64,000 bases of DNA from Desulfosudaceae bacterium. GTDB taxonomy: Bacteria; Desulfobacterota; Desulfobacteria; Desulfobacterales; Desulfosudaceae. Positions 37,317 to 51,096 of the stretch are shown here, piece by piece. Position 1 is the stretch's first letter; each line of letters starts with the position of its first letter. The stretch lies in NCBI GenBank assembly GCA_963674745.2, contig CAXXDV010000001.1, forward strand, positions 960,001 to 1,024,000, written 5' to 3'. Under the pieces are notes generated by a model, which ran no database searches, had not been told where the DNA came from, and saw only the letters and a list, made by a program, of their open reading frames with translations. The position numbers and the translations under genes were made by a program.

Positions 37317-37541
37317 AATGATGTCCGTTCAGATCAATTATCCGGAATTAAAACAGCTCAATCAATCATATGGTTTTTAGACCGATCAGTCAACACTATA
37401 CATGAAAGGGGTTTTTATTGCCGATGATTGACAAAAAAAACTGTTTTGGTTATATTTTAAATTTGAGGTCTTTTTCATCCCTGTCAGACGTTCATTGCCC
37501 TGACAGTGTGTTCTTCCACAGTAGCGACAAGGAACCACTAT

Positions 37542-37922
37542 ATGCCCCCTGGCAAAACAGTAGACAAAGAAAGGCTGAACCAGCTTCTGGGCGATGTCCG
37601 TCGCCGACGCATGCAATCGGAAAAAGGGTATCGTGAACGGGCCTTGAAACTGTTTCCGCACATCTGTGCTCATTGCGGGCGGGAATTTTCAGGCCAGCGG
37701 CTGAAAGAGCTTACCGTTCACCACAAAGACCACAATCATGACAACAACCCGCCTGACGGCAGCAACTGGGAACTGCTCTGCCTTTATTGCCACGAAAATC
37801 AGCACGCCCGCCAGGCGGTCGCCGACGCCTACGACACGTCGACCGACAACCAGAAAGAAAAATCAACGTTAACGCATCAACCCTTTGCCGGGTTGAGCGC
37901 GTTGCTGCAAAAAAAAGAGTGA
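37542..37922 (+). CDS. yajD: YajD family HNH nuclease
   Basis: GYRERALKLFPHICAHCGREF..LKELTVHHKDHNHDNNPPDGSNWELLCLYCHENQH; SD AAGGA. Confidence 0.9.
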   Translation: MPPGKTVDKERLNQLLGDVRRRRMQSEKGYRERALKLFPHICAHCGREFSGQRLKELTVHHKDHNHDNNPPDGSNWELLCLYCHENQHARQAVADAYDTSTDNQKEKSTLTHQPFAGLSALLQKKE

Positions 37923-40528: not shown

Positions 40529-41710
40529 CTAGGCCGCCCGGTAATCCCGGGAAGAATCGGGAACATCAAAATCCAGGGCATCAAAGACCGGTTTGTAAAT
40601 GGTCATCATTTCGCTCATGTCTATCCCGAACTGCTCCAGTGAGTAGCTGTGCCGGCTGACATAGCCGCGCGATCGCATGGATTCTTCTTTCAGTTTCAGC
40701 TCAAACTCAGGATTCAAAGGGAGATGGAAAGTGGCATAAATATGCCGTATGTGGGCTTCCAGGTCTTTGATCAGGTCATCATACCGTGAGGTAAAAAACT
40801 TGTCCGGTTTAAAGTCAGGCCTCTGTTCAATGGGATACATGTAACCGTTATAAATAAACGCCATAAGTTCCTGCTTATGCTCAAAAACATTCTTGAGTTT
40901 CATACCGAAGATCCCGAAAAAGAGCGCCTGCAGGCTGAAATCGGAAGGGACCAGCTCCATGGGCGTCCGCACCGGATTAATCACCCTCACGTCCGGACAC
41001 ATCTGCTGGATCGACTTGATTTTAAATGAACAGGCGGGGTTTTTTGACAGAAAGATCTTGTCCGGCCCATGAAAATAAAGGTGCCGCTGGATACAGCGTT
41101 TGTAGAAAGCCATGATAAACCGTTTTTCTTTTTTCGACATCAGGTGGTCGAAATAAAAAAGCTTTCTGACATGCTCGAAATATGGAAACATGAAAGAGAT
41201 AAAAAACGTGCTGAAGGTATTGAGCAGCAGCAGATCGTCCTCTTCGTTTTCAAACAGGCTTACCCGGCGAATATCATATGTCGATTTAAACAGCAGCCAG
41301 TCCATGGCCCGGACAATCTTGTACAACAGGCCGAACAACAAAAGGGCATCCAGCCGGTTGATCAGCATCAACAGCTTTCGTTGCACCACCGACGGCGCGA
41401 ACACCAGTTCCCACAGCAAAAAGCTGGTGAACTGACTGTCTTTGGACATGGTCCGGTGAAGATGAGTGGCACCGCTTCTGGGAACACCGAATATAAATAC
41501 CGGTGCCTTGATTTTCACTTTTCGAAACCCGGGATAAAAAACATGATCCAGCGCCAGGCAGATCCAATTGATGGCGATATTCACCAGAATCAACGGCACC
41601 ATCACCGCCAGGCAGAAAATCCGGTATGGACTCAAAGGTGTTCCGTACTTTCGGCCATTGAAGATGGCAATAAGATACAATTTTGCCACAAGCAAAAAAT
41701 TAAAAAACAT
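40529..41710 (-). CDS. PAPS-dependent sulfotransferase family protein with N-terminal membrane anchor
   Basis: PVFIFGVPRSGATHLH (5'-PSB loop), ENEED, LSKNP, VRTP..S, RYDDL..D. Confidence 0.85.
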   Translation of the reverse strand: MFFNFLLVAKLYLIAIFNGRKYGTPLSPYRIFCLAVMVPLILVNIAINWICLALDHVFYPGFRKVKIKAPVFIFGVPRSGATHLHRTMSKDSQFTSFLLWELVFAPSVVQRKLLMLINRLDALLLFGLLYKIVRAMDWLLFKSTYDIRRVSLFENEEDDLLLLNTFSTFFISFMFPYFEHVRKLFYFDHLMSKKEKRFIMAFYKRCIQRHLYFHGPDKIFLSKNPACSFKIKSIQQMCPDVRVINPVRTPMELVPSDFSLQALFFGIFGMKLKNVFEHKQELMAFIYNGYMYPIEQRPDFKPDKFFTSRYDDLIKDLEAHIRHIYATFHLPLNPEFELKLKEESMRSRGYVSRHSYSLEQFGIDMSEMMTIYKPVFDALDFDVPDSSRDYRAA

Positions 41711-41762
41711 ATTCCCCCCCACAGAGAATCTAGACAACCGTAGAAAAATTTCCCGTACAACT

Positions 41763-41804
41763 AAAAAAGCCGGGATACCCCTGTTACATCAGGGCATCCC
41801 GGCT
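41763..41804 (-). terminator. Intrinsic terminator forming the riboswitch expression platform
   Basis: Minus strand AGCCGGGAUGCCC-UGAUGUAACAG-GGGUAUCCCGGCU followed by a U-tract; the 5' arm overlaps the aptamer 3' end. Confidence 0.85.
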
Positions 41805-41868
41805 GTCTTTTAAAAAGATCCTGGGCTTTCCGCTCCCGGATGTCCGGGATTAGCTTTTTCCTGATCTT
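41786..41868 (-). ncRNA. GEMM-I (c-di-GMP-I / c-AMP-GMP class) riboswitch aptamer
   Basis: Minus strand AUCAGG-AAAAAG-CUAA-UCCCGGACAUCCGGGA-GCGGAAAG-CCCAGGAUCUUUUUAAAAGACAGCCGGGAUGC-CCUGAU; P1 AUCAGG/CCUGAU; conserved CUAA, CGGAAAG and ACAGCCGGGAUGCC. Confidence 0.85.
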
Positions 41869-41901
41869 AACCACTAATTAAGAACAACATTCACTAACCG
41901 A

Positions 41902-41930
41902 ACGGTATGTTATTGCCTCCTTGCTGTCAA
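41902..41930 (-). promoter_or_regulatory. Sigma70 promoter driving the riboswitch leader
   Basis: TTGACA (41930-41925), N17, TACCGT (41907-41902). Confidence 0.65.
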
Positions 41931-42070
41931 CAAAAAAATTCAGGTAATATGTTGTTTTATTGGTCTAAACAAAAGCCACCGGATACTTTCACTTCTTATC
42001 AGCCGATATATCAGCCCCATATTCGACCAGTCGTTCGACTAAGGTCCCGGTATGTAATTCAAACAGATGG

Positions 42071-43339
42071 TTATCGTAGGCTCCGCTTTTTCTTTGCCTT
42101 TACACCGTACTTTTTGCGATTTCGATCAATTTTTATGGCTGTCATCAACCCCTTGTCCCGCACGGCAAACATCTTCAGCCCCAGGCGGCCCATGTTAAAA
42201 AAACGCTTTCCGTATTTGCTTAATTCTTTCTCGTTAATTTCAAATCCCAGTCCCGGCAGCCTTGGCGGATTCAGTACCCCGCGATCATGGTGAAACTTTT
42301 CAACCAGCAGCCCGTCGCGTTTATCCACCACCCATGACGGTGGATTAAGCGGATACTCAAGAGGCTTGCGGCCGTTGAAACCACTGGCCAGCATAAGCTG
42401 AAGGTTCACGGCAAAACCGATGCCGTTGGTCCAGGTATGGGGTGTGTATAAAAGATCGTTTTCGCGACACAGCCTGGCCACTTCCATTGTCTGGGCGATA
42501 CCGCCGGTCATGATGGCATCCGGTTGAAAAATATGATAACATTTTCGCTCGATCATCATCTTCAGCTCGGCAAACCCGTTGGTATGGATTTCTCCGCCAC
42601 TGATGGGCACCCGGCTGTAAGCGGTCAGGGCGGCCTGATCGTCATAAGCGTCCATGGGCAGGGGTTCCTCCAGCCAGGCCACGCCCAGGTCGGCACAGGC
42701 ATCGGCAAAATTTTTAGCCCGCGCAAGGTCCCACAGGGGGGCATCATTGACAATGGTCACCCGCCAGGCCTGGTTGGCATCCACGCCGATATTAATTTTA
42801 TCACCCATGGCCACGGCCACGGCTTCCACCTGGGCAATGTCCTTTTTAATATCAAAGTCATGCACCCGCAGCTTGACGCTTTTAAAGCCCTCTTCATAGC
42901 GCTGCTGAACTTCTTCCACCCGCGCCCGGGGTGATTTCACCTCCCCGGTTGACGCATACAGCGCGACCGGTTCGTGTTGACCGCCCAGCAGTTCATATAC
43001 GGGCTTGTTTTCCAGCTTGCCCGAGATGTCCCAGAAAGCGGGCTCCATCCAGTTGGCGCGAACCCCGAGGTAGGACACTTCCCGCAGACGCTGCTGGATC
43101 AGCGGAATATCAGTGGCATCAACATCGATCAGGTAGGGTGTGATCAGTTCTCCCAGGCCTCTGCGCTCGGTGGAGATGGCCGGGCCGGCGGAATATCCCT
43201 GAACGCCGCTTGCCGTGGTCACACGGACAAGGTCAAACCGGTTTTCGGTCTGGGGATACCCCGGAATCCAGCTGGGATAAAACGGTTTATCAAGGGGGAT
43301 ACGAACATGAAACAGTTCAATGCGTGAAATTTGGCTCAT
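42071..43339 (-). CDS. Mandelate racemase/muconate lactonizing enzyme (enolase superfamily) protein
   Basis: AFWDISGK..PVYELLGG, KSVKLR, VDANQ, WLEEP, SGGE, QPD, PHTW, PGLGFE. Confidence 0.92.
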   Translation of the reverse strand: MSQISRIELFHVRIPLDKPFYPSWIPGYPQTENRFDLVRVTTASGVQGYSAGPAISTERRGLGELITPYLIDVDATDIPLIQQRLREVSYLGVRANWMEPAFWDISGKLENKPVYELLGGQHEPVALYASTGEVKSPRARVEEVQQRYEEGFKSVKLRVHDFDIKKDIAQVEAVAVAMGDKINIGVDANQAWRVTIVNDAPLWDLARAKNFADACADLGVAWLEEPLPMDAYDDQAALTAYSRVPISGGEIHTNGFAELKMMIERKCYHIFQPDAIMTGGIAQTMEVARLCRENDLLYTPHTWTNGIGFAVNLQLMLASGFNGRKPLEYPLNPPSWVVDKRDGLLVEKFHHDRGVLNPPRLPGLGFEINEKELSKYGKRFFNMGRLGLKMFAVRDKGLMTAIKIDRNRKKYGVKAKKKRSLR

Positions 43340-43561
43340 GGTCTGCTCCTGAAAATGGGATTAATTTGTTTTACCATATTTTCAATTTTATGCCAGCCTG
43401 GAAACGCTCCTGTCGAAAAATCGGGACAGGCCTGCCCGCTGACGCTCATCCGCTATGGCGCTTCCGGAAATTTGTTTGAAAACAAACCCTAAACATGATA
43501 CACAAAGAGACAGTATATATTTGTTTTCTTTAGAACATATTGTTACCCGGAATGGAATCGA

Positions 43562-44566
43562 ATGTCTGTTTATACCCGCCAGCTGATGAATTGCGTGGAA
43601 ATCGGCAAGGCCGTTACTTCGGCCGCCAACATGGAGGAAATTACCGCCGTCATCCTCAAGCGCCTCAGCGAATTGATCAAGGCCCGGAACTGGACATTAT
43701 ATCTGCTGGACCATGAACGCGAGGAGCTGATCTTCGCCCTGGTGATGGGGCTGGATTATAATCTGGTCAAAGATCAACGCATTAAGCTGGGAGAGGGTAT
43801 TGCCGGTAAAGTGGCCCTGACCGGAGAACCCATTTCCGTTCGCAAAGAAGTGGGGCACGACCCGCGCTTCAACCCGGAGATCGACTCGCTGACGGGGTTT
43901 AAGACGAAATCCATCATATGTATCCCGCTTAAAGCCCAGGGCCGTGTGATCGGTGTGCTGGAAGTGATCAATCCTCAGGACACATCGCTTTTTGAAGACG
44001 ACTATCAGCCGATCCTGTCCATTCTGGCGGATTTCACCGCCATCGGCATCGTCAACGCCCGGGTCTATGAAGAAATCAACCGCCTGGTCATTACCGATGA
44101 TGTCACCGGCTGTTACAACACCCGTTTCCTGCATGATTTCCTGAAACAGGTCATCGACAGCGGGCAGGAAGTTTCCCTGGTGTTTCTCGATCTGGACGAC
44201 TTTAAAAGCGTGGTGGACACACACGGACACCAGCTTGGCAGTAAAATGCTAAAAGAGGTGGCGACCACCCTGGTGGACAGCGTTGATCGCCAGGACCGCC
44301 TGGTCCATTACGGAGGGGACGAGTTTGTGATTATCTTTCCGGGGCAGGACAAGGCCACGGCCCTGGCCAAGGTTGATAAAATTCGAAACACGCTTGAGAA
44401 AACGGCGTTCCTTCAGGAAGAAGGCCTCCAGGTCCCCATCAGCGCCAGTTTCGGCGTCGCCGGCTGCCCTCATGACGCGCCGGATCAGAAAAGCCTGCTC
44501 CAGCTGGCCGACAACGCGCTCTACCGCAGCAAGGATAAAGGCAAAAACGCGGTCACGGTGATGTAA
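43562..44566 (+). CDS. GAF-GGDEF dinucleotide cyclase with Hypr-type Asp->Ser substitution
   Basis: GAF (GEGIAGKVA..DPRF..TGFKTKSIICIPL..IGVLEVIN); DLDDFKSVVDTHGHQLGS; YGGDEF; ADNALYRSK..GKN. Confidence 0.9.
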   Translation: MSVYTRQLMNCVEIGKAVTSAANMEEITAVILKRLSELIKARNWTLYLLDHEREELIFALVMGLDYNLVKDQRIKLGEGIAGKVALTGEPISVRKEVGHDPRFNPEIDSLTGFKTKSIICIPLKAQGRVIGVLEVINPQDTSLFEDDYQPILSILADFTAIGIVNARVYEEINRLVITDDVTGCYNTRFLHDFLKQVIDSGQEVSLVFLDLDDFKSVVDTHGHQLGSKMLKEVATTLVDSVDRQDRLVHYGGDEFVIIFPGQDKATALAKVDKIRNTLEKTAFLQEEGLQVPISASFGVAGCPHDAPDQKSLLQLADNALYRSKDKGKNAVTVM

Positions 44567-44574
44567 CCGACGAT

Positions 44575-46173
44575 CTACTGTTTGCGCGTCCAACCCTCAT
44601 ATCTTTTACAGGCCTCCTCATGCCCCAGGTCGCAGGCCTGTTTCAGATCTTCCAGGGCGTGTTCCATATCATCGTTATGATAATGGGTGCCGAATCTTTC
44701 GTAATACGCATCCGCATGATCCGGTACCAGGGAAATATAGTCGTTCCAGTAGGCGATAATCGTCTCCCACCGACGGTCACGGACAAGAATGTAATCGATC
44801 ATGCGATAGGATTCAAAGTGGCGCGGGTCTATGGCGATGGCGGATTGAAAATCCATCAGCGCCGCATCAAACGCCTTTAAATCGTAATGGGCACGGCCCC
44901 GCCAGAAATAAGCGTCCACGTTTTCTTCATCAAACGCAAGCGACAGGTTATATTTCTCAATCGCGCCCTGATGATCGCCTTTAAACTGTTTATGCCCCTC
45001 GTGCATAATGATATTGGACGCTTTTTCTTTCCACCCGATGATATCCGGATCGACCGGGTTGATAAGCATGGCCCTTTCCAGGTCCGCCTTTGATTCATCA
45101 TACTGCTCCCGTGCCAGATAGACAACCGACCTGATCCGGTAACCGTCTGCCTTTGTCGGCCTTAATTCGATACTTCGATTGACATATTCAAGCGCCCGGT
45201 CATAGTCCTTGATGTTATAACAGTAAATTCTGGCCAGATCACTATAGATGATACACAAATCACCGAATGACAGGGCCTTGTTCAAAAGATCAATCGCTTC
45301 CTGATATTTTTTTTTATGGCGATATACCCTGGCCTGATCAAGGTAAATCAGCCCGTACAGCGCGCCAAGGGAAGGGTTAACTTCCATGTGCGCCTCGGCC
45401 TTTTTCACCAGGGCTTCCATCTGCGAATAGCTTCCGCCCCACCGGGGCTGTTTTGACCACATTGCCGAGAACAGGACAAGCGACGAAGAAGGAAACAATT
45501 CCATGCCGTGTTTAATTGTCCTGTCTTCCAGCACATCCTCGCCATCGCAGTTATAAATTCCGATTAAGACGGGATAAACGATCAGCAGGTCGGGATGAAG
45601 GGCCAACGCCTGATCAATATTCCTGAGTGCTTCTGAAAAAAAATGGCGCATTCCTTTGAACTGCGCATCGGAAGTCTCTCCGGCCCAATCGGTTCCTCTG
45701 CTCGCCAGGCCTCTTTCATAGTTATACAGGGCAAAGGCCAGATAGGGCTGATAGGCATCAGGGGAATGATGGATCCACTGTTTAAAATACGTTTCATTGT
45801 CCGAATCGGGCACGGCCAGGGATGTATACGCATCGGACAGCTTGTATTCGTTGGCCGGGTCCGCTTCAAACGCCTTCTGATAACCGTTTAGGATCTCATT
45901 TAAAGCATCAAAATCTCCGCTTTTGAGCATCTCCCGCAACCGGGCCATTTGCCGGTAATCAATCGTTTCCGGGGCAAGGGCTGAAGCAGGGAGATCCGGT
46001 GCGGCCTGTGTTACTTCATACACGTCGCCTTTCCAGAGACGTGCCGCCAGGTTGAAAAGACCACTATGAAGATCAAAATGCCTGATGGTGATGATGGATA
46101 TTGATATGATCACCACCAGAAACACCGCGGTCAACAAGAATGGGGTTAAACCACTTCTATTGCCATCATCCAT
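44575..46173 (-). CDS. Membrane-anchored DUF4034-like + TPR repeat protein
   Basis: N-terminal TM; ASRGTDWA and QPRWGGSY motifs; several TPR-like repeats; ends ACDLGHEEAC. Confidence 0.8.
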   Translation of the reverse strand: MDDGNRSGLTPFLLTAVFLVVIISISIITIRHFDLHSGLFNLAARLWKGDVYEVTQAAPDLPASALAPETIDYRQMARLREMLKSGDFDALNEILNGYQKAFEADPANEYKLSDAYTSLAVPDSDNETYFKQWIHHSPDAYQPYLAFALYNYERGLASRGTDWAGETSDAQFKGMRHFFSEALRNIDQALALHPDLLIVYPVLIGIYNCDGEDVLEDRTIKHGMELFPSSSLVLFSAMWSKQPRWGGSYSQMEALVKKAEAHMEVNPSLGALYGLIYLDQARVYRHKKKYQEAIDLLNKALSFGDLCIIYSDLARIYCYNIKDYDRALEYVNRSIELRPTKADGYRIRSVVYLAREQYDESKADLERAMLINPVDPDIIGWKEKASNIIMHEGHKQFKGDHQGAIEKYNLSLAFDEENVDAYFWRGRAHYDLKAFDAALMDFQSAIAIDPRHFESYRMIDYILVRDRRWETIIAYWNDYISLVPDHADAYYERFGTHYHNDDMEHALEDLKQACDLGHEEACKRYEGWTRKQ

Positions 46174-46211: not shown

Positions 46212-47039
46212 TCAGTCGCACTTTATCTCGGCGGCCGCATCCGGATCAAACGGGTTAATCCGTACTGCCAATGAAAAAAGATATTTATAATTCAATTGCA
46301 GATATCGTATATAGCGCAACCATTCGGACACCAGCAATTTGTATACCCGGGCCATATCCCCTTCCAGATGTCTGCGGTCCGTTTCAGGCACATCAGACAG
46401 GTCTTTCCGGTTTAACAGTTCATCCCGCAGGTGAAACAGGGCACGAAGAAGTTCCGTAAAACGCTCATGTTCCTGAATGTTCGGATTTTCAAGCAGCCGC
46501 AACAAAAAATCGCCGTTTTCCCGCAGAAAAGCCAGTAATGCAGGCCCGTCACCGCCAGCAAAGTCGATTGAGAAATGATGCTGCCGGATAAAACCATCGG
46601 CCCTGACAAAGTCTTCTTTTTTCCAGTCCGATGAAACTTTCAGCTCCTTTTGAAGCGCTGCAAGCCCAGGATCATATCCCGCAAACCGCCTTAACAGCGC
46701 GTTACCGATTTCACTGAAAAACAACCCGGTGACCATATCGATTTTCTGCTGCCTGGCCGCTTCTTCGCGGCGATTGACAAACACATCCGTAATACTGGCA
46801 ATAACACCGAGAAAAGTGCCCACACCGCCGATGATAATGACCAGGGTCAGGAGCTTACCGATACCGGTCACGGGATGAAGATCGCCATACCCGACGGTCG
46901 CCATGGTAACAATGGAAAAATAGACGGCGTCGGTCAAAGACATGCCCTCAAACGCCATGAAGCCGATGATACCGGCCAGCAGCAGCCCCGTGAAGACCGC
47001 CAGATATACTTTAAGGCGAAAATTCGTCTTGTCGCTCAT
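46212..47039 (-). CDS. 2-TM potassium channel family protein without an RCK domain
   Basis: DAVYFSIVTMATVGYGD selectivity filter; helical cytoplasmic C-domain. Confidence 0.88.
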   Translation of the reverse strand: MSDKTNFRLKVYLAVFTGLLLAGIIGFMAFEGMSLTDAVYFSIVTMATVGYGDLHPVTGIGKLLTLVIIIGGVGTFLGVIASITDVFVNRREEAARQQKIDMVTGLFFSEIGNALLRRFAGYDPGLAALQKELKVSSDWKKEDFVRADGFIRQHHFSIDFAGGDGPALLAFLRENGDFLLRLLENPNIQEHERFTELLRALFHLRDELLNRKDLSDVPETDRRHLEGDMARVYKLLVSEWLRYIRYLQLNYKYLFSLAVRINPFDPDAAAEIKCD

Positions 47040-48308: not shown

Positions 48309-49967
48309 ATGATGTTACATCGAAAGATCGGCTGTCGTGTGGCATGCGCTTTACTCGCTGTTTTTTTCCTTGGTTTTGTTCCAATTTCTTCAGCAGCGGA
48401 CTTATCTAAAGCTAAAATGCAGGCCATATTGGATGAGAGCATAAAAGACCTGCTGACCGGAAAGGCATTCCCCCCGGTACTGGAGAAAAAACAGTTGGCC
48501 CTTCGGAAAATGTTTGAAGCCGGCGCTGTCAGCAAGTCCGAGCTGACAGCAATGGTGGAAGCGTCGATGATGCCGATTCTGGACGCGCATCAGCAGGAAA
48601 CCTCGGTAGACATTTTCAAAGAGCTTCCCGCGCGTGTTGAAGCCCTGCTTTCCCCTTACATGAGCTGGCAGGAGGTCAAGGAGGCCGGCTGGCGAATTGC
48701 ATCTCCCCTGATCAATGAAAGCATCAAGAACCTGCTGACCGGGGAGTCGTTCAGCCCGGAACTGGAGCGCAAGCAGCTGGTCGTGAGAAAGATGTTTGAA
48801 GCCGGACTGATCAGCAAGGCGGAGTGTATCACCATGGTGGAGGATTCGATGATTCCCATTCTGGATCATTACAAGACCTCGCGATATATTTTAAAAGACA
48901 TACCTGAACGCGTGGAAGCCCTGCTGGCCCCCTATATGACCTGGGAGGAGGTCGAGGAGGTGGCCTGGCGGAAAGGGTCCTCCCTGATCAAGGATGGGGA
49001 CCAGATGGTCCTCACCATCGGCACCCTGGCCCCGCCAGGAACCCCGTGGATCAACATTCCCGAAAAAGTTCTGATTCCCCGGATCGCCCGGTTGAGCAAC
49101 AACAAGGTAGTCGTTAAAGTTTACGGCGGCGGCGTCATGGGGGAGGATACCGACATCTTAAGAAAGATGGACATCGGCCAGCTCAGCGGCTGCGGCTGCA
49201 CGGCCCTGGGCATTCTGGCTGCGTCACCGGAGATATCGGCCCTTTTGCTGCCGGGCCTTTTCAGAAACTATGATGAAGTGGATTACATACTGGAGAAGTT
49301 CAGAAAAAGGATCGACAGTTCGTTTGAGAAACGGGGTTACATCCTGGGCGCCCTGATTGATACCGGCTTTTTTTACCTGTTTACCAAATACCGTGCATCC
49401 TCTCTGGCCGACCTGAAAAAACAGAAACTGTTGACATGGTTCGGCGAAATGGAAACGACCTTTTACAAAGAGCTTGGAATTGATGCCACGCCCGTGGCCG
49501 TTCCGGAAACAATTTCAGCGCTGAGCATGGAGCTGGCCAACGCCAATATGGCGCCGGCTGCCTGGATGCTCGGCATACAGGCGTATCAGTACCAGAACTA
49601 TTTTTTCACACCGCCGATGGTTTATTCTCCCGGTGCCATCATTGTCAGCGTGGCCACTAAAGAAAAGCTGCGCAAACAATTCGGCGTTTCGGAGACACTG
49701 GCTTACAATGTTCAGGAAATGCTGATTTATGAGGTCAGCCTGTTGGAACCCCGGTGGAAAAAAGAGGTCCGGGATTTTGAGGCAAAAAGCCTGAAGGCGT
49801 TTCAGGTCAAGTGCGGCATGAAAGCCGTCCCCCTCTCCGCCGAGGATCAGAAAACGCTTGAACAGGCGGCCTCGAGGGTTAACGACAAGCTGGCCGACAG
49901 GGTTTATTCCCGAGCCTTCATGGACGACATCCGGAAGGCGCTGGCGGAGTATCGGTCCGGACGGTAA
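48309..49967 (+). CDS. dctP: TRAP transporter substrate-binding protein with tandemly duplicated N-terminal domain
   Basis: Signal peptide; C-terminal IGTLAPPGTPW, YGGGVMGEDTDILRKM..GQL, LPGLFRNYDEVDY. Confidence 0.85.
   Translation: MMLHRKIGCRVACALLAVFFLGFVPISSAADLSKAKMQAILDESIKDLLTGKAFPPVLEKKQLALRKMFEAGAVSKSELTAMVEASMMPILDAHQQETSVDIFKELPARVEALLSPYMSWQEVKEAGWRIASPLINESIKNLLTGESFSPELERKQLVVRKMFEAGLISKAECITMVEDSMIPILDHYKTSRYILKDIPERVEALLAPYMTWEEVEEVAWRKGSSLIKDGDQMVLTIGTLAPPGTPWINIPEKVLIPRIARLSNNKVVVKVYGGGVMGEDTDILRKMDIGQLSGCGCTALGILAASPEISALLLPGLFRNYDEVDYILEKFRKRIDSSFEKRGYILGALIDTGFFYLFTKYRASSLADLKKQKLLTWFGEMETTFYKELGIDATPVAVPETISALSMELANANMAPAAWMLGIQAYQYQNYFFTPPMVYSPGAIIVSVATKEKLRKQFGVSETLAYNVQEMLIYEVSLLEPRWKKEVRDFEAKSLKAFQVKCGMKAVPLSAEDQKTLEQAASRVNDKLADRVYSRAFMDDIRKALAEYRSGR
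48429..48986 (+). repeat. Intragenic tandem duplication (two units of about 93 aa)
   Basis: ESIKDLLTG..RKMFEAG..SMMPILD..RVEALLSPYMSW versus ESIKNLLTG..RKMFEAG..SMIPILD..RVEALLAPYMTW. Confidence 0.9.
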
Positions 49968-50100: not shown

Positions 50101-51096
50101 TCATGACCTGTTCGGGTCGGTCAGACCGGCCTTGTGAGTGGTTTGGGCAATCGCGAAAATTTTTGCGTTCTGTTCTTTCGGAATCAATTCGTTTTTCATC
50201 TGCTCGGTCAGGGCCTTCATGGCAAACCATTGACCCGAAGAAACAACCACCACTTCAAAGGTGCCGTCGTCCCGCATCACGGCGCCACAGCCCGAAGCCC
50301 AGAAAAACATGCGTTTATCAATACGCCCCTTGACCTGTTCGCCGCGCCCGAAAAACACGACTTTTTCATGAACGCCGATCTTTCTGAGCAGGGTATATTT
50401 AAGGCGCACGGAAACCCCGCCATGGGCATAAGCCATAAAACCGCCCCAGCCCATGGTTTCATCCAGCACGGCAAAGAGGGTAATGGGATGCAGGCAACCA
50501 TTACGGCAGAAGCGATGAATGGTCTGTTTGTCTTCCGGGTTAAATCCGGAAAAGGCGCAGACGATGTCACCATGGGGGCTGCTCCACAAATGAAACTGCC
50601 TTTTCAGTCCCGGCATCGACCGTTCGACCCCGCAGACAAAACAGTTCAGGTAATACGGGATATGCTCCAGCTTTCCCGATATCTGCGAAAAATTTTCCGG
50701 AACATAGTCCCGGGCATAAGCATCCTTTTCCGGCACCTTGTCACCAAAGCTGATTTCACCGGTAATATAGGGCATATCAGCCCCCTCGGGACTGATGCGA
50801 CCGGATATACCGGTTTCGGTCGCTGTCGCCTCGATCAGGACCGTATTTCCAACCCGTACTTCACTGCCGCCCATGCGGAAACTGCATTGGACCGGATACT
50901 TTAAATCGTTTTCGAAAGTACAATGTTCAAAACCGTTCGTCAGTTCCAACATCGCGCCCATGCCGATACCGCCGTGGGGAATACCGACCCAGCCTTCTTT
51001 ACCGGCATCCATCATCATCGGCATTGATATTTTCCCGGCGCTTTTGACAATATCGGCATTGTCGAATAAAAACGTGCGCACAAAATCATTTGACAT
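50101..51096 (-). CDS. Probable double hotdog-fold (PaaI-like thioesterase) protein
   Basis: GWVGIPHGG; CFVCG..PGL; LH...AVLDETMGW; SD GGAGG. Confidence 0.65.
   Translation of the reverse strand: MSNDFVRTFLFDNADIVKSAGKISMPMMMDAGKEGWVGIPHGGIGMGAMLELTNGFEHCTFENDLKYPVQCSFRMGGSEVRVGNTVLIEATATETGISGRISPEGADMPYITGEISFGDKVPEKDAYARDYVPENFSQISGKLEHIPYYLNCFVCGVERSMPGLKRQFHLWSSPHGDIVCAFSGFNPEDKQTIHRFCRNGCLHPITLFAVLDETMGWGGFMAYAHGGVSVRLKYTLLRKIGVHEKVVFFGRGEQVKGRIDKRMFFWASGCGAVMRDDGTFEVVVVSSGQWFAMKALTEQMKNELIPKEQNAKIFAIAQTTHKAGLTDPNRS

Follow-up and report, generated by a model that had tools for sequence, protein, structure and literature searches.

Hypr GGDEF enzymes are defined by one residue, and GacA (GSU1658 / Gmet_1914), a REC-Hypr GGDEF protein of Geobacter, is described as keeping a second base-reading residue: its two base contacts are Ser348 and Asn339 (PMC6456294). 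According to the same account, the Ser in GacA functions with GGDEF only and not with GGEEF, the S348D substitution produces a diguanylate cyclase, and a D-to-S mutant of GSU3350 gained no use of ATP and stayed a diguanylate cyclase. Hypr enzymes whose cross-dimer residue is Y, S, A or Q are reported to make mainly cGAMP, and those with Arg more c-di-GMP (PMC6456294); cross-dimer contacts are described in PMC8041772. GacB is a GAF-GGDEF protein activated by cAMP and inhibited by c-di-GMP via its I-site (bioRxiv 10.1101/600031). The I-site that binds c-di-GMP is reported as conserved in GacA, GacB and Bd0367 (bioRxiv 10.1101/600031, PMC9140294). Lcd1 is described as a cAMP-activated GAF-GGDEF diguanylate cyclase (PMC8846402, PMC12943098, PMC11800159). 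For canonical GGDEF enzymes, a review reports N335 as essential (PMC7288161), and R366 is described as touching the substrate pocket (PMC7186502). Among readers and erasers of these nucleotides, GEMM-I riboswitches with G20 read c-di-GMP and those with A at this position read cGAMP, some A-type RNAs binding both (PMC6140456); Rxx(Q/N) is given as the mark of cGAMP phosphodiesterases (bioRxiv 10.1101/600031).

The window, a 64,000-nucleotide stretch of a Desulfosudaceae genome, contains an intact ORF for a 334-aa GAF-GGDEF protein (P0001). The gene is flanked by genes for an enolase-superfamily protein and a TPR protein, both on the opposite strand, and no promoter-like site was found in 41700-44700. 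The features of the gene are given below, with residue counts from the best 120 of 5967 homologues found (identity 54-97%) and from 66 Val-type domains.

43562..44566, plus strand: GAF-GGDEF gene (P0001), stand-alone, neighbours on both sides oppositely oriented; AlphaFold mean pLDDT 83.9
43631..44050, plus strand: GAF domain, predicted cAMP sensor (Pfam, residues 24-163); best sequence match 5W10, E 1.5e-33
44090..44548, plus strand: GGDEF domain of the Hypr lineage, Val branch (Pfam, residues 177-329)
44120..44122, plus strand: Thr187, cross-dimer position (Tyr304 in GacA, Arg in canonical cyclases); T 106 / S 14 in 120 homologues
44189..44206, plus strand: D210-K215, metal-binding Asp and transition-state Lys, intact; 120/120 homologues, 66/66 Val-type domains
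44213..44215, plus strand: Val218 (GTG), replacing the sugar-edge Asn (GacA N339, PleD N335), signature of the branch; 120/120 homologues
44240..44242, plus strand: Ser227 (AGT), Hypr signature (GacA S348, PleD D344); S 119 / T 1 in 120 homologues
44285..44296, plus strand: degenerate I-site D242-R-Q-D245, Arg of RxxD lost; in 66 Val-type domains the four most frequent residues at 242 do not include Arg
44306..44308, plus strand: His249, replacing PleD R366, the substrate-pocket Arg; R33, K25, H5, A2 in 66 Val-type domains, R in 46/46 Asn-type Hypr domains
44312..44326, plus strand: GGDEF motif, residues 251-255, intact, central Asp D253; GGDE invariant in 66/66 Val-type domains

The first-pass annotation had read in this ORF a nucleotide-binding helix, DLDDFKSVVDTHGHQLGS, with Ser (AGT at 44240-44242) at the D344-equivalent position, VD for the canonical ND, an intact GGDEF and DRQD (242-245) where the RxxD I-site would be, and all of these readings held. 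The best match of the GGDEF domain in the PDB was GacA (6D9M, E 4.4e-30); in this alignment Ser227 pairs with Ser348, Val218 with Asn339, Thr187 with Tyr304 and Asp253 with Asp374, the GacA numbering being obtained by counting the chain as printed, starting from residues numbered in PMC6456294. PleD D327, K332, N335, D344, R359/D362, R366 and E370 fall on D210, K215, V218, S227, D242/D245, H249 and D253 with one constant offset of 117. The canonical metal and phosphate residues D327, K332, E/D370, K442 and R/K446 are kept as D210, K215, D253, K324 and K328, and the central Asp of GGDE[F/Y] is present, as Ser-type enzymes require. The canonical guanine-reading N335 and D344 are both missing. 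Two further changes in the pocket had escaped the first-pass annotation, namely Thr187, where the cross-dimer Arg would be, and His249, in place of the Arg preceding YGGDEF. Four guanine-reading positions of PleD are replaced: Asp344 by Ser, Asn335 by Val, Arg366 by His, and the cross-dimer Arg by Thr. There is good support for the claim that the protein differs from an ordinary diguanylate cyclase.

P0001 resembles GacA in the Ser at 348, the GGDEF motif, the non-Arg cross-dimer residue (Thr, which is absent from the published tested set Y, S, A, Q) and the catalytic residues; it differs in having Val for Asn339, His for the Arg before YGGDEF, no RxxD, GAF input instead of REC, and no A20 riboswitch regulon in its genome. 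With GacB (MXAN_2643, Myxococcus xanthus), which was compared by description and not by sequence, it shares the GAF-GGDEF layout, the Hypr lineage and a predicted cAMP input; the inhibitory I-site described for GacB is, however, degenerate in P0001. Bd0367 of Bdellovibrio bacteriovorus likewise carries the Ser signature, and its S214D mutant switches the product to c-di-GMP, but its I-site is conserved, and the text available from PMC9140294 reports no Val at the Asn position. By most marks, then, P0001 is Hypr, and we class it as a variant of Hypr GGDEF rather than a plain member because two features of the tested members are missing, the I-site and the sugar-edge Asn found in GacA.

The AlphaFold model (pLDDT 83.9, pTM 0.51) has a GAF domain, a continuous linker helix (146-177) and a normal GGDEF fold. 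Foldseek searches with this model returned GAF-GGDEF cyclases, 6D9M and the cAMP-bound GAF of Lcd1 (LIC13137, Leptospira interrogans). The latter is among the top matches in structure (34% identity, target TM-score 0.82) as well as the best match in sequence, the title of 5W10 being 'Lcd1 GAF domain in complex with cAMP ligand'. The top sequence matches of the GAF domain are cNMP-binding GAFs, and the motifs common to them are near-invariant (by column counts, N43 W44, G77-G82, D100/R102/F103, D108, T111 and T115). For the sensor-controlled enzyme of the first-pass annotation, similarity narrows the predicted sensor to a likely cAMP-binding GAF. Unlike P0001, Lcd1 is described as having canonical catalytic residues and both I-sites; its product is given as c-di-GMP (PMC8846402, PMC12943098, PMC11800159).

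Val218, Ser/Thr227 and Thr/Ser187 were each found in all of the best 120 of 5967 homologues, and His249 in just 14. Because Val218 and Ser/Thr227 each occur in 120/120 homologues, Val218 and Ser227 are not the product of chance or sequencing error. A private mutation or gene decay was ruled out by the fixation of Val together with purifying selection: relative to the orthologue from the same genus, dN/dS was ~0.09 in the GAF domain and ~0.13 in the GGDEF domain. A profile made from 33 homologues found one gene each in 39/301 genomes of the class (E<=1e-75). In the 30 class loci examined, Val was present in 30/30, and position 227 was Ser in 25, Gly in 3 and Thr in 2. We also searched 80 chosen class genomes (39 with and 41 without a profile match) with a DNA pattern for the non-Asp helix and read the matches by eye; the 55 matches comprised 53 with Val, one with Pro, one with Thr (not a GGDEF) and none with Asn. 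Across 50 motif matches, Val was encoded by all four codons and Ser by both codon families (14 TCN and 29 AGY).

For the phylum, the helix pattern was limited to Ser/Thr-type codons and run on 201 genomes, again read by eye. The 94 matches, in 75 genomes, had Val in 23 (21 genomes), Asn in 70 and His in one, and no genome or family among the 201 phylum genomes contained both Val and Asn types. The pattern thus does detect Asn types, and the distribution of the two types follows lineage. The source labels of the homologues and Geobacter-type riboswitches in the phylum sample suggest Desulfobacterota as the phylum of the host. The inputs of Val-type GGDEF domains include GAF, REC, REC-PAS, PAS and cNMP-GAF. 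Val-type domains also occur in records named Spirochaetes and Verrucomicrobia; the scan of named genomes (at least 601 rows, mostly generic GGDEF patterns) gives a range of taxa and not a frequency, with at least 5 Val-type among 80 loci from the matches listed. In a search of representative sequences, 14/67 GGDEF domains in the top 150 were of the Val type, the results being crowded by multi-GAF proteins. P0001 is the only Ser-type GGDEF among the 21 GGDEF matches in its own genome; the remaining 20 have Asn in 20/20 and Asp in 19/20.

The tree was calculated from 103 of 170 domains after deletion of the five signature columns. GacA, GacB and Bd0367 were represented in its rows only by look-alikes from Geobacter and Bacteriovoracaceae (L045, L047). 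All 78 non-Asp rows, the Geobacter and Bacteriovoracaceae proteins among them, fell on one side of a branch with an SH-aLRT of 88. P0001 lies in an 11-row Val group (97) nested within a 24-row Val group (86). Eight Val rows fall outside the 24-row group, four of them scattered among Asn rows; the tree in which all 32 Val rows were constrained together had a higher likelihood, and a single clade was not rejected (p-AU 0.63) and is thereby not proven. The phylogeny supports the Val type as a branch nested in the Hypr lineage. The proposal of a Hypr cGAMP synthase was borne out as far as the lineage goes (the Ser348 equivalent, GGDEF and not GGEEF, the non-Arg cross-dimer residue, GacA as the top PDB match, and the tree), but cGAMP is one likely product among others. 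The change from Asn to Val, which had been treated as an additional substitution, is real and was underweighted: Val is the mark of the branch, and with it a contact retained in GacA is lost. A Hypr branch with Val for Asn is not described in the literature searched, which did not extend to the 2016 paper defining Hypr, where such proteins may already be listed.

Several related variants were encountered. The loci L187, L188, L190, L194 and related ones (L187-L195 except L192 and L193) form a second group of Val-type paralogues, some with PAS inputs, which has an AGDEF motif and Ala at the R366 equivalent; in three of these the cross-dimer residue is still Arg. In one GAF-GGDEF protein (L198, G058:C49) Pro replaces the Asn and Ser the Asp. 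Further Hypr-lineage domains (L119, L120, L123, P0159, P0189, P0201, P0246, P0263) have Gly or Arg at the Ser position, some of them with Cys or Asp at the Asn position.

The catalytic machinery of P0001 is likely active, as predicted from its conserved residues. In the 66 Val-type domains D179, N186, D210, D212, K215, D219, H223, GGDE, D317 and K324 are invariant, and position 328 is K or R. The same domains have lost the I-site Arg and show relaxed conservation at position 249; at the equivalent of position 242, by comparison, Arg is found in 35/46 Asn-type Hypr and 53/58 canonical domains. The fusion of Val-type domains to several kinds of input is as expected for a working output domain.

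The genome contains six GEMM-I riboswitches, five of them above the Rfam cut-off. At the column that we take to be the specificity position, following Vc2 numbering, all six have G (G20), so no A20 (GEMM-Ib) riboswitch was found among them; as a control, the same column is A in multi-copy Geobacter-type matches of Asn-type genomes. No Rxx(Q/N) HD-GYP phosphodiesterase was detected, the eight parsed HD-GYP proteins all being Rxx(K/R) with three more HD_5 ORFs left out, and no c-di-AMP riboswitch was found in the genome. A CdaA-type DAC is present (L007), as are seven class III cyclase matches. Besides the DAC in L007, a 563-aa ORF (L008, G000 C1:1169285-1172395) has a DACNV and a weak DAC match; at E<=1e-15, this genome alone (G000) had a DAC among the 6 genomes of its family that were searched.

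Run on the 80 class genomes, the A20 pattern matched 16 times, in 14 genomes, and its reversed control 6 times; three A20 matches (in G052, G092 and G007) were dropped for want of a paired stem. A20 was then found in 9/43 Val-positive versus 2/37 Val-negative genomes (Fisher p 0.055, kin not being independent), an association that is weak and kin-clustered, with 4 genomes from one family and 2 from another. The G20 pattern matched 50/80 class genomes. Outside the class, A20 matched 0/19 Val-type, 7/35 Asn-type and 0/26 motif-negative genomes, and G20 matched 4/19, 6/35 and 9/26, respectively. With 28/35 Asn-type genomes also lacking an A20 match, A20 is not obligatory. The genome context neither shows nor excludes cGAMP. 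No neighbouring gene was conserved across families at 38 loci (flanks of 1.5-5 kb), and none was shared with the same-genus orthologue. That Val enzymes substitute for DAC was not supported, DAC being found in 33/43 Val versus 23/37 other class genomes (p 0.22). A genome of the same genus (G002) has a single A20-type riboswitch (L178, G002:C27:41109), very similar to its four G20 paralogues; by DNA pattern, the Val type is the only non-Asp GGDEF found there.

We give roughly even chances to P0001 being an active, cAMP-gated and feedback-free cyclase that is more ATP-favouring than GacA, and that would make cGAMP and c-di-AMP and little c-di-GMP. In such an enzyme cAMP would bind to the GAF domain, judging from its similarity to the GAF of Lcd1, and the cAMP-bound GAF would set the dimer, or align the two half-sites, via the long linker helix (146-177), as in Lcd1 and GacB. 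Ser227 would read the Watson-Crick edge of either purine, and Val218, on chemical reasoning, would present no hydrogen-bond acceptor to the 2-amino group of guanine. GTP binding would be expected to fall more than ATP binding because Val218 cannot accept this hydrogen bond and two substrate-contacting Arg are gone. With RxxD lost, feedback by c-di-GMP via the I-site would be impossible. A toy rapid-equilibrium calculation with GacA's published constants and ATP:GTP at 3:1 gave 34/52/13% c-di-GMP/cGAMP/c-di-AMP at baseline, 11/51/38% with GTP binding 3-fold weaker, and 2/28/70% with GTP binding 10-fold weaker; it illustrates sensitivity only, as the factor for GTP is assumed and ATP binding could also fall. 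Within the ATP-favouring reading, cGAMP is somewhat more probable than c-di-AMP as the main product. It would be a bold claim, and we consider it unlikely, that the Val+Ser branch as a whole is a GGDEF-fold diadenylate cyclase, that is, a cAMP-gated, DAC-independent c-di-AMP synthase, fixed in several classes of a single phylum, that every annotation labels a diguanylate cyclase.

The reading as an ATP-favouring cyclase is supported by the alignment of Ser227 and Val218, the non-Arg Thr187, the invariant catalytic residues, purifying selection, the variety of inputs and the placement in the tree, and also by the Val and Asn types never co-occurring in a genome or family and by the frequency of A20 (9/43 versus 2/37), with G002 among the carriers. 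Gating by cAMP is suggested by the proximity of the GAF to the Lcd1-cAMP structure and by the seven class III cyclase matches. Against this reading stand the reports that N335 is essential (PMC7288161) and that GacA keeps this residue, and the GSU3350 D-to-S mutant, in which Ser alone was insufficient for ATP use (both PMC6456294). The readers and erasers in the genome also argue against it (6/6 riboswitches G20, 8/8 parsed HD-GYP Rxx(K/R), no c-di-AMP riboswitch found), as do the 0/19 Val-type genomes with A20 outside the class (though 7/35 Asn-type), the weak and kin-clustered link within it, the CdaA-type DAC already in the genome, and the lack of DAC depletion in Val genomes.

Alternatively, Val218 may be neutral and P0001 an ordinary enzyme of the GacB kind, with cGAMP as main and c-di-GMP as side product. 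This was the view of the first-pass annotation, and we think it improbable. It accords with the published Hypr marks, all present except Asn, with a GAF-GGDEF layout the same as that of cAMP-activated GacB, with the lineage-by-lineage replacement of the Asn type by the Val type, and with the same-genus genome G002, where one A20 riboswitch accompanies a Val-type enzyme only (DNA pattern). A neutral site, however, is expected to vary, yet Val occupies it in 120/120 best homologues and 53/55 class motif matches, and its appearance coincides with relaxation at the R366 position and loss of the I-site; moreover, neither an A20 riboswitch nor an Rxx(Q/N) HD-GYP (8 parsed) was found in the genome. 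Another reading is a conserved protein that does not cyclize ATP or GTP, such as a GGDEF that binds nucleotides or serves as an adaptor, or an enzyme whose substrate differs or whose product is linear. In its favour, the genome yielded neither a matching reader nor a matching eraser, and no neighbour gene is conserved across families (38 loci). Loss of the reportedly essential Asn (PMC7288161), plus three further base contacts, points the same way. We nevertheless regard this as unlikely: the phosphate, metal and cross-dimer residues are all invariant, the Ser/GGDEF pairing needed by GacA (PMC6456294) holds in 66/66 Val-type domains, and the domain is joined to several kinds of sensor.

Very unlikely, in our estimation, is an Lcd1-like cAMP-activated diguanylate cyclase that makes c-di-GMP only and feeds the G20 riboswitches of the genome. 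Lcd1 has the GAF most similar to that of P0001, the six riboswitches all belong to the c-di-GMP type, one of them lying 1.7 kb from the gene, and one D-to-S mutant with GGDEF is reported to have stayed a diguanylate cyclase (PMC6456294); but four of four guanine-reading residues are replaced, 19 other GGDEF domains with Asn and Asp can supply c-di-GMP, and the nearby riboswitch points away and leads a different gene.

A whole branch (39/301 class genomes and other classes) has dropped the second base-reading residue and kept the catalytic machinery. If cGAMP is made, many more organisms, probably sulfate reducers and syntrophs, would have the pathway; most of them lack the known riboswitch readers, which would imply receptors not yet known. 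If c-di-AMP is made, the series G-G, G-A, A-A would be complete in one fold, and there would be a second route to c-di-AMP.

The riboswitch near the gene (41790-41864, minus strand; GEMM-I, G20, 31.8 bits, E 5e-4) scores slightly below the Rfam cut-off and was missed by the gathering-score scan. It lies upstream of a sulfotransferase-family gene (40529-41737), and a hairpin with a T-run follows it, overlapping its 3' end. A tie between this riboswitch and the GAF-GGDEF gene was ruled out, as it is on the opposite strand and leads the sulfotransferase-like gene. The remaining five riboswitches of the genome (L001-L005; G000 C3:66575, C3:904596, C1:1388025, C3:356229 and C1:641517) precede genes for large secreted repeat proteins (SBBP/DUF7948, DUF5122, FG-GAP), a transglutaminase-like protein and a ketosynthase. 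Elsewhere in the window are genes for a small HNH protein (37506-37922, plus strand), an Ion_trans_2 channel-like protein (46212-47039, minus strand), a DctP-like protein with a duplicated N-terminal segment (48309-49967, plus strand) and a 331-aa protein without a Pfam match (50101-51096, minus strand). Tandem arrays of GEMM-I aptamers were seen in other genomes, with five consecutive copies at a spacing of ~75-95 bases in L161 (G031:C75) and L166 (G158:C86), and similar clusters in G260, G235, G292, G234, G146, G006 and G009.
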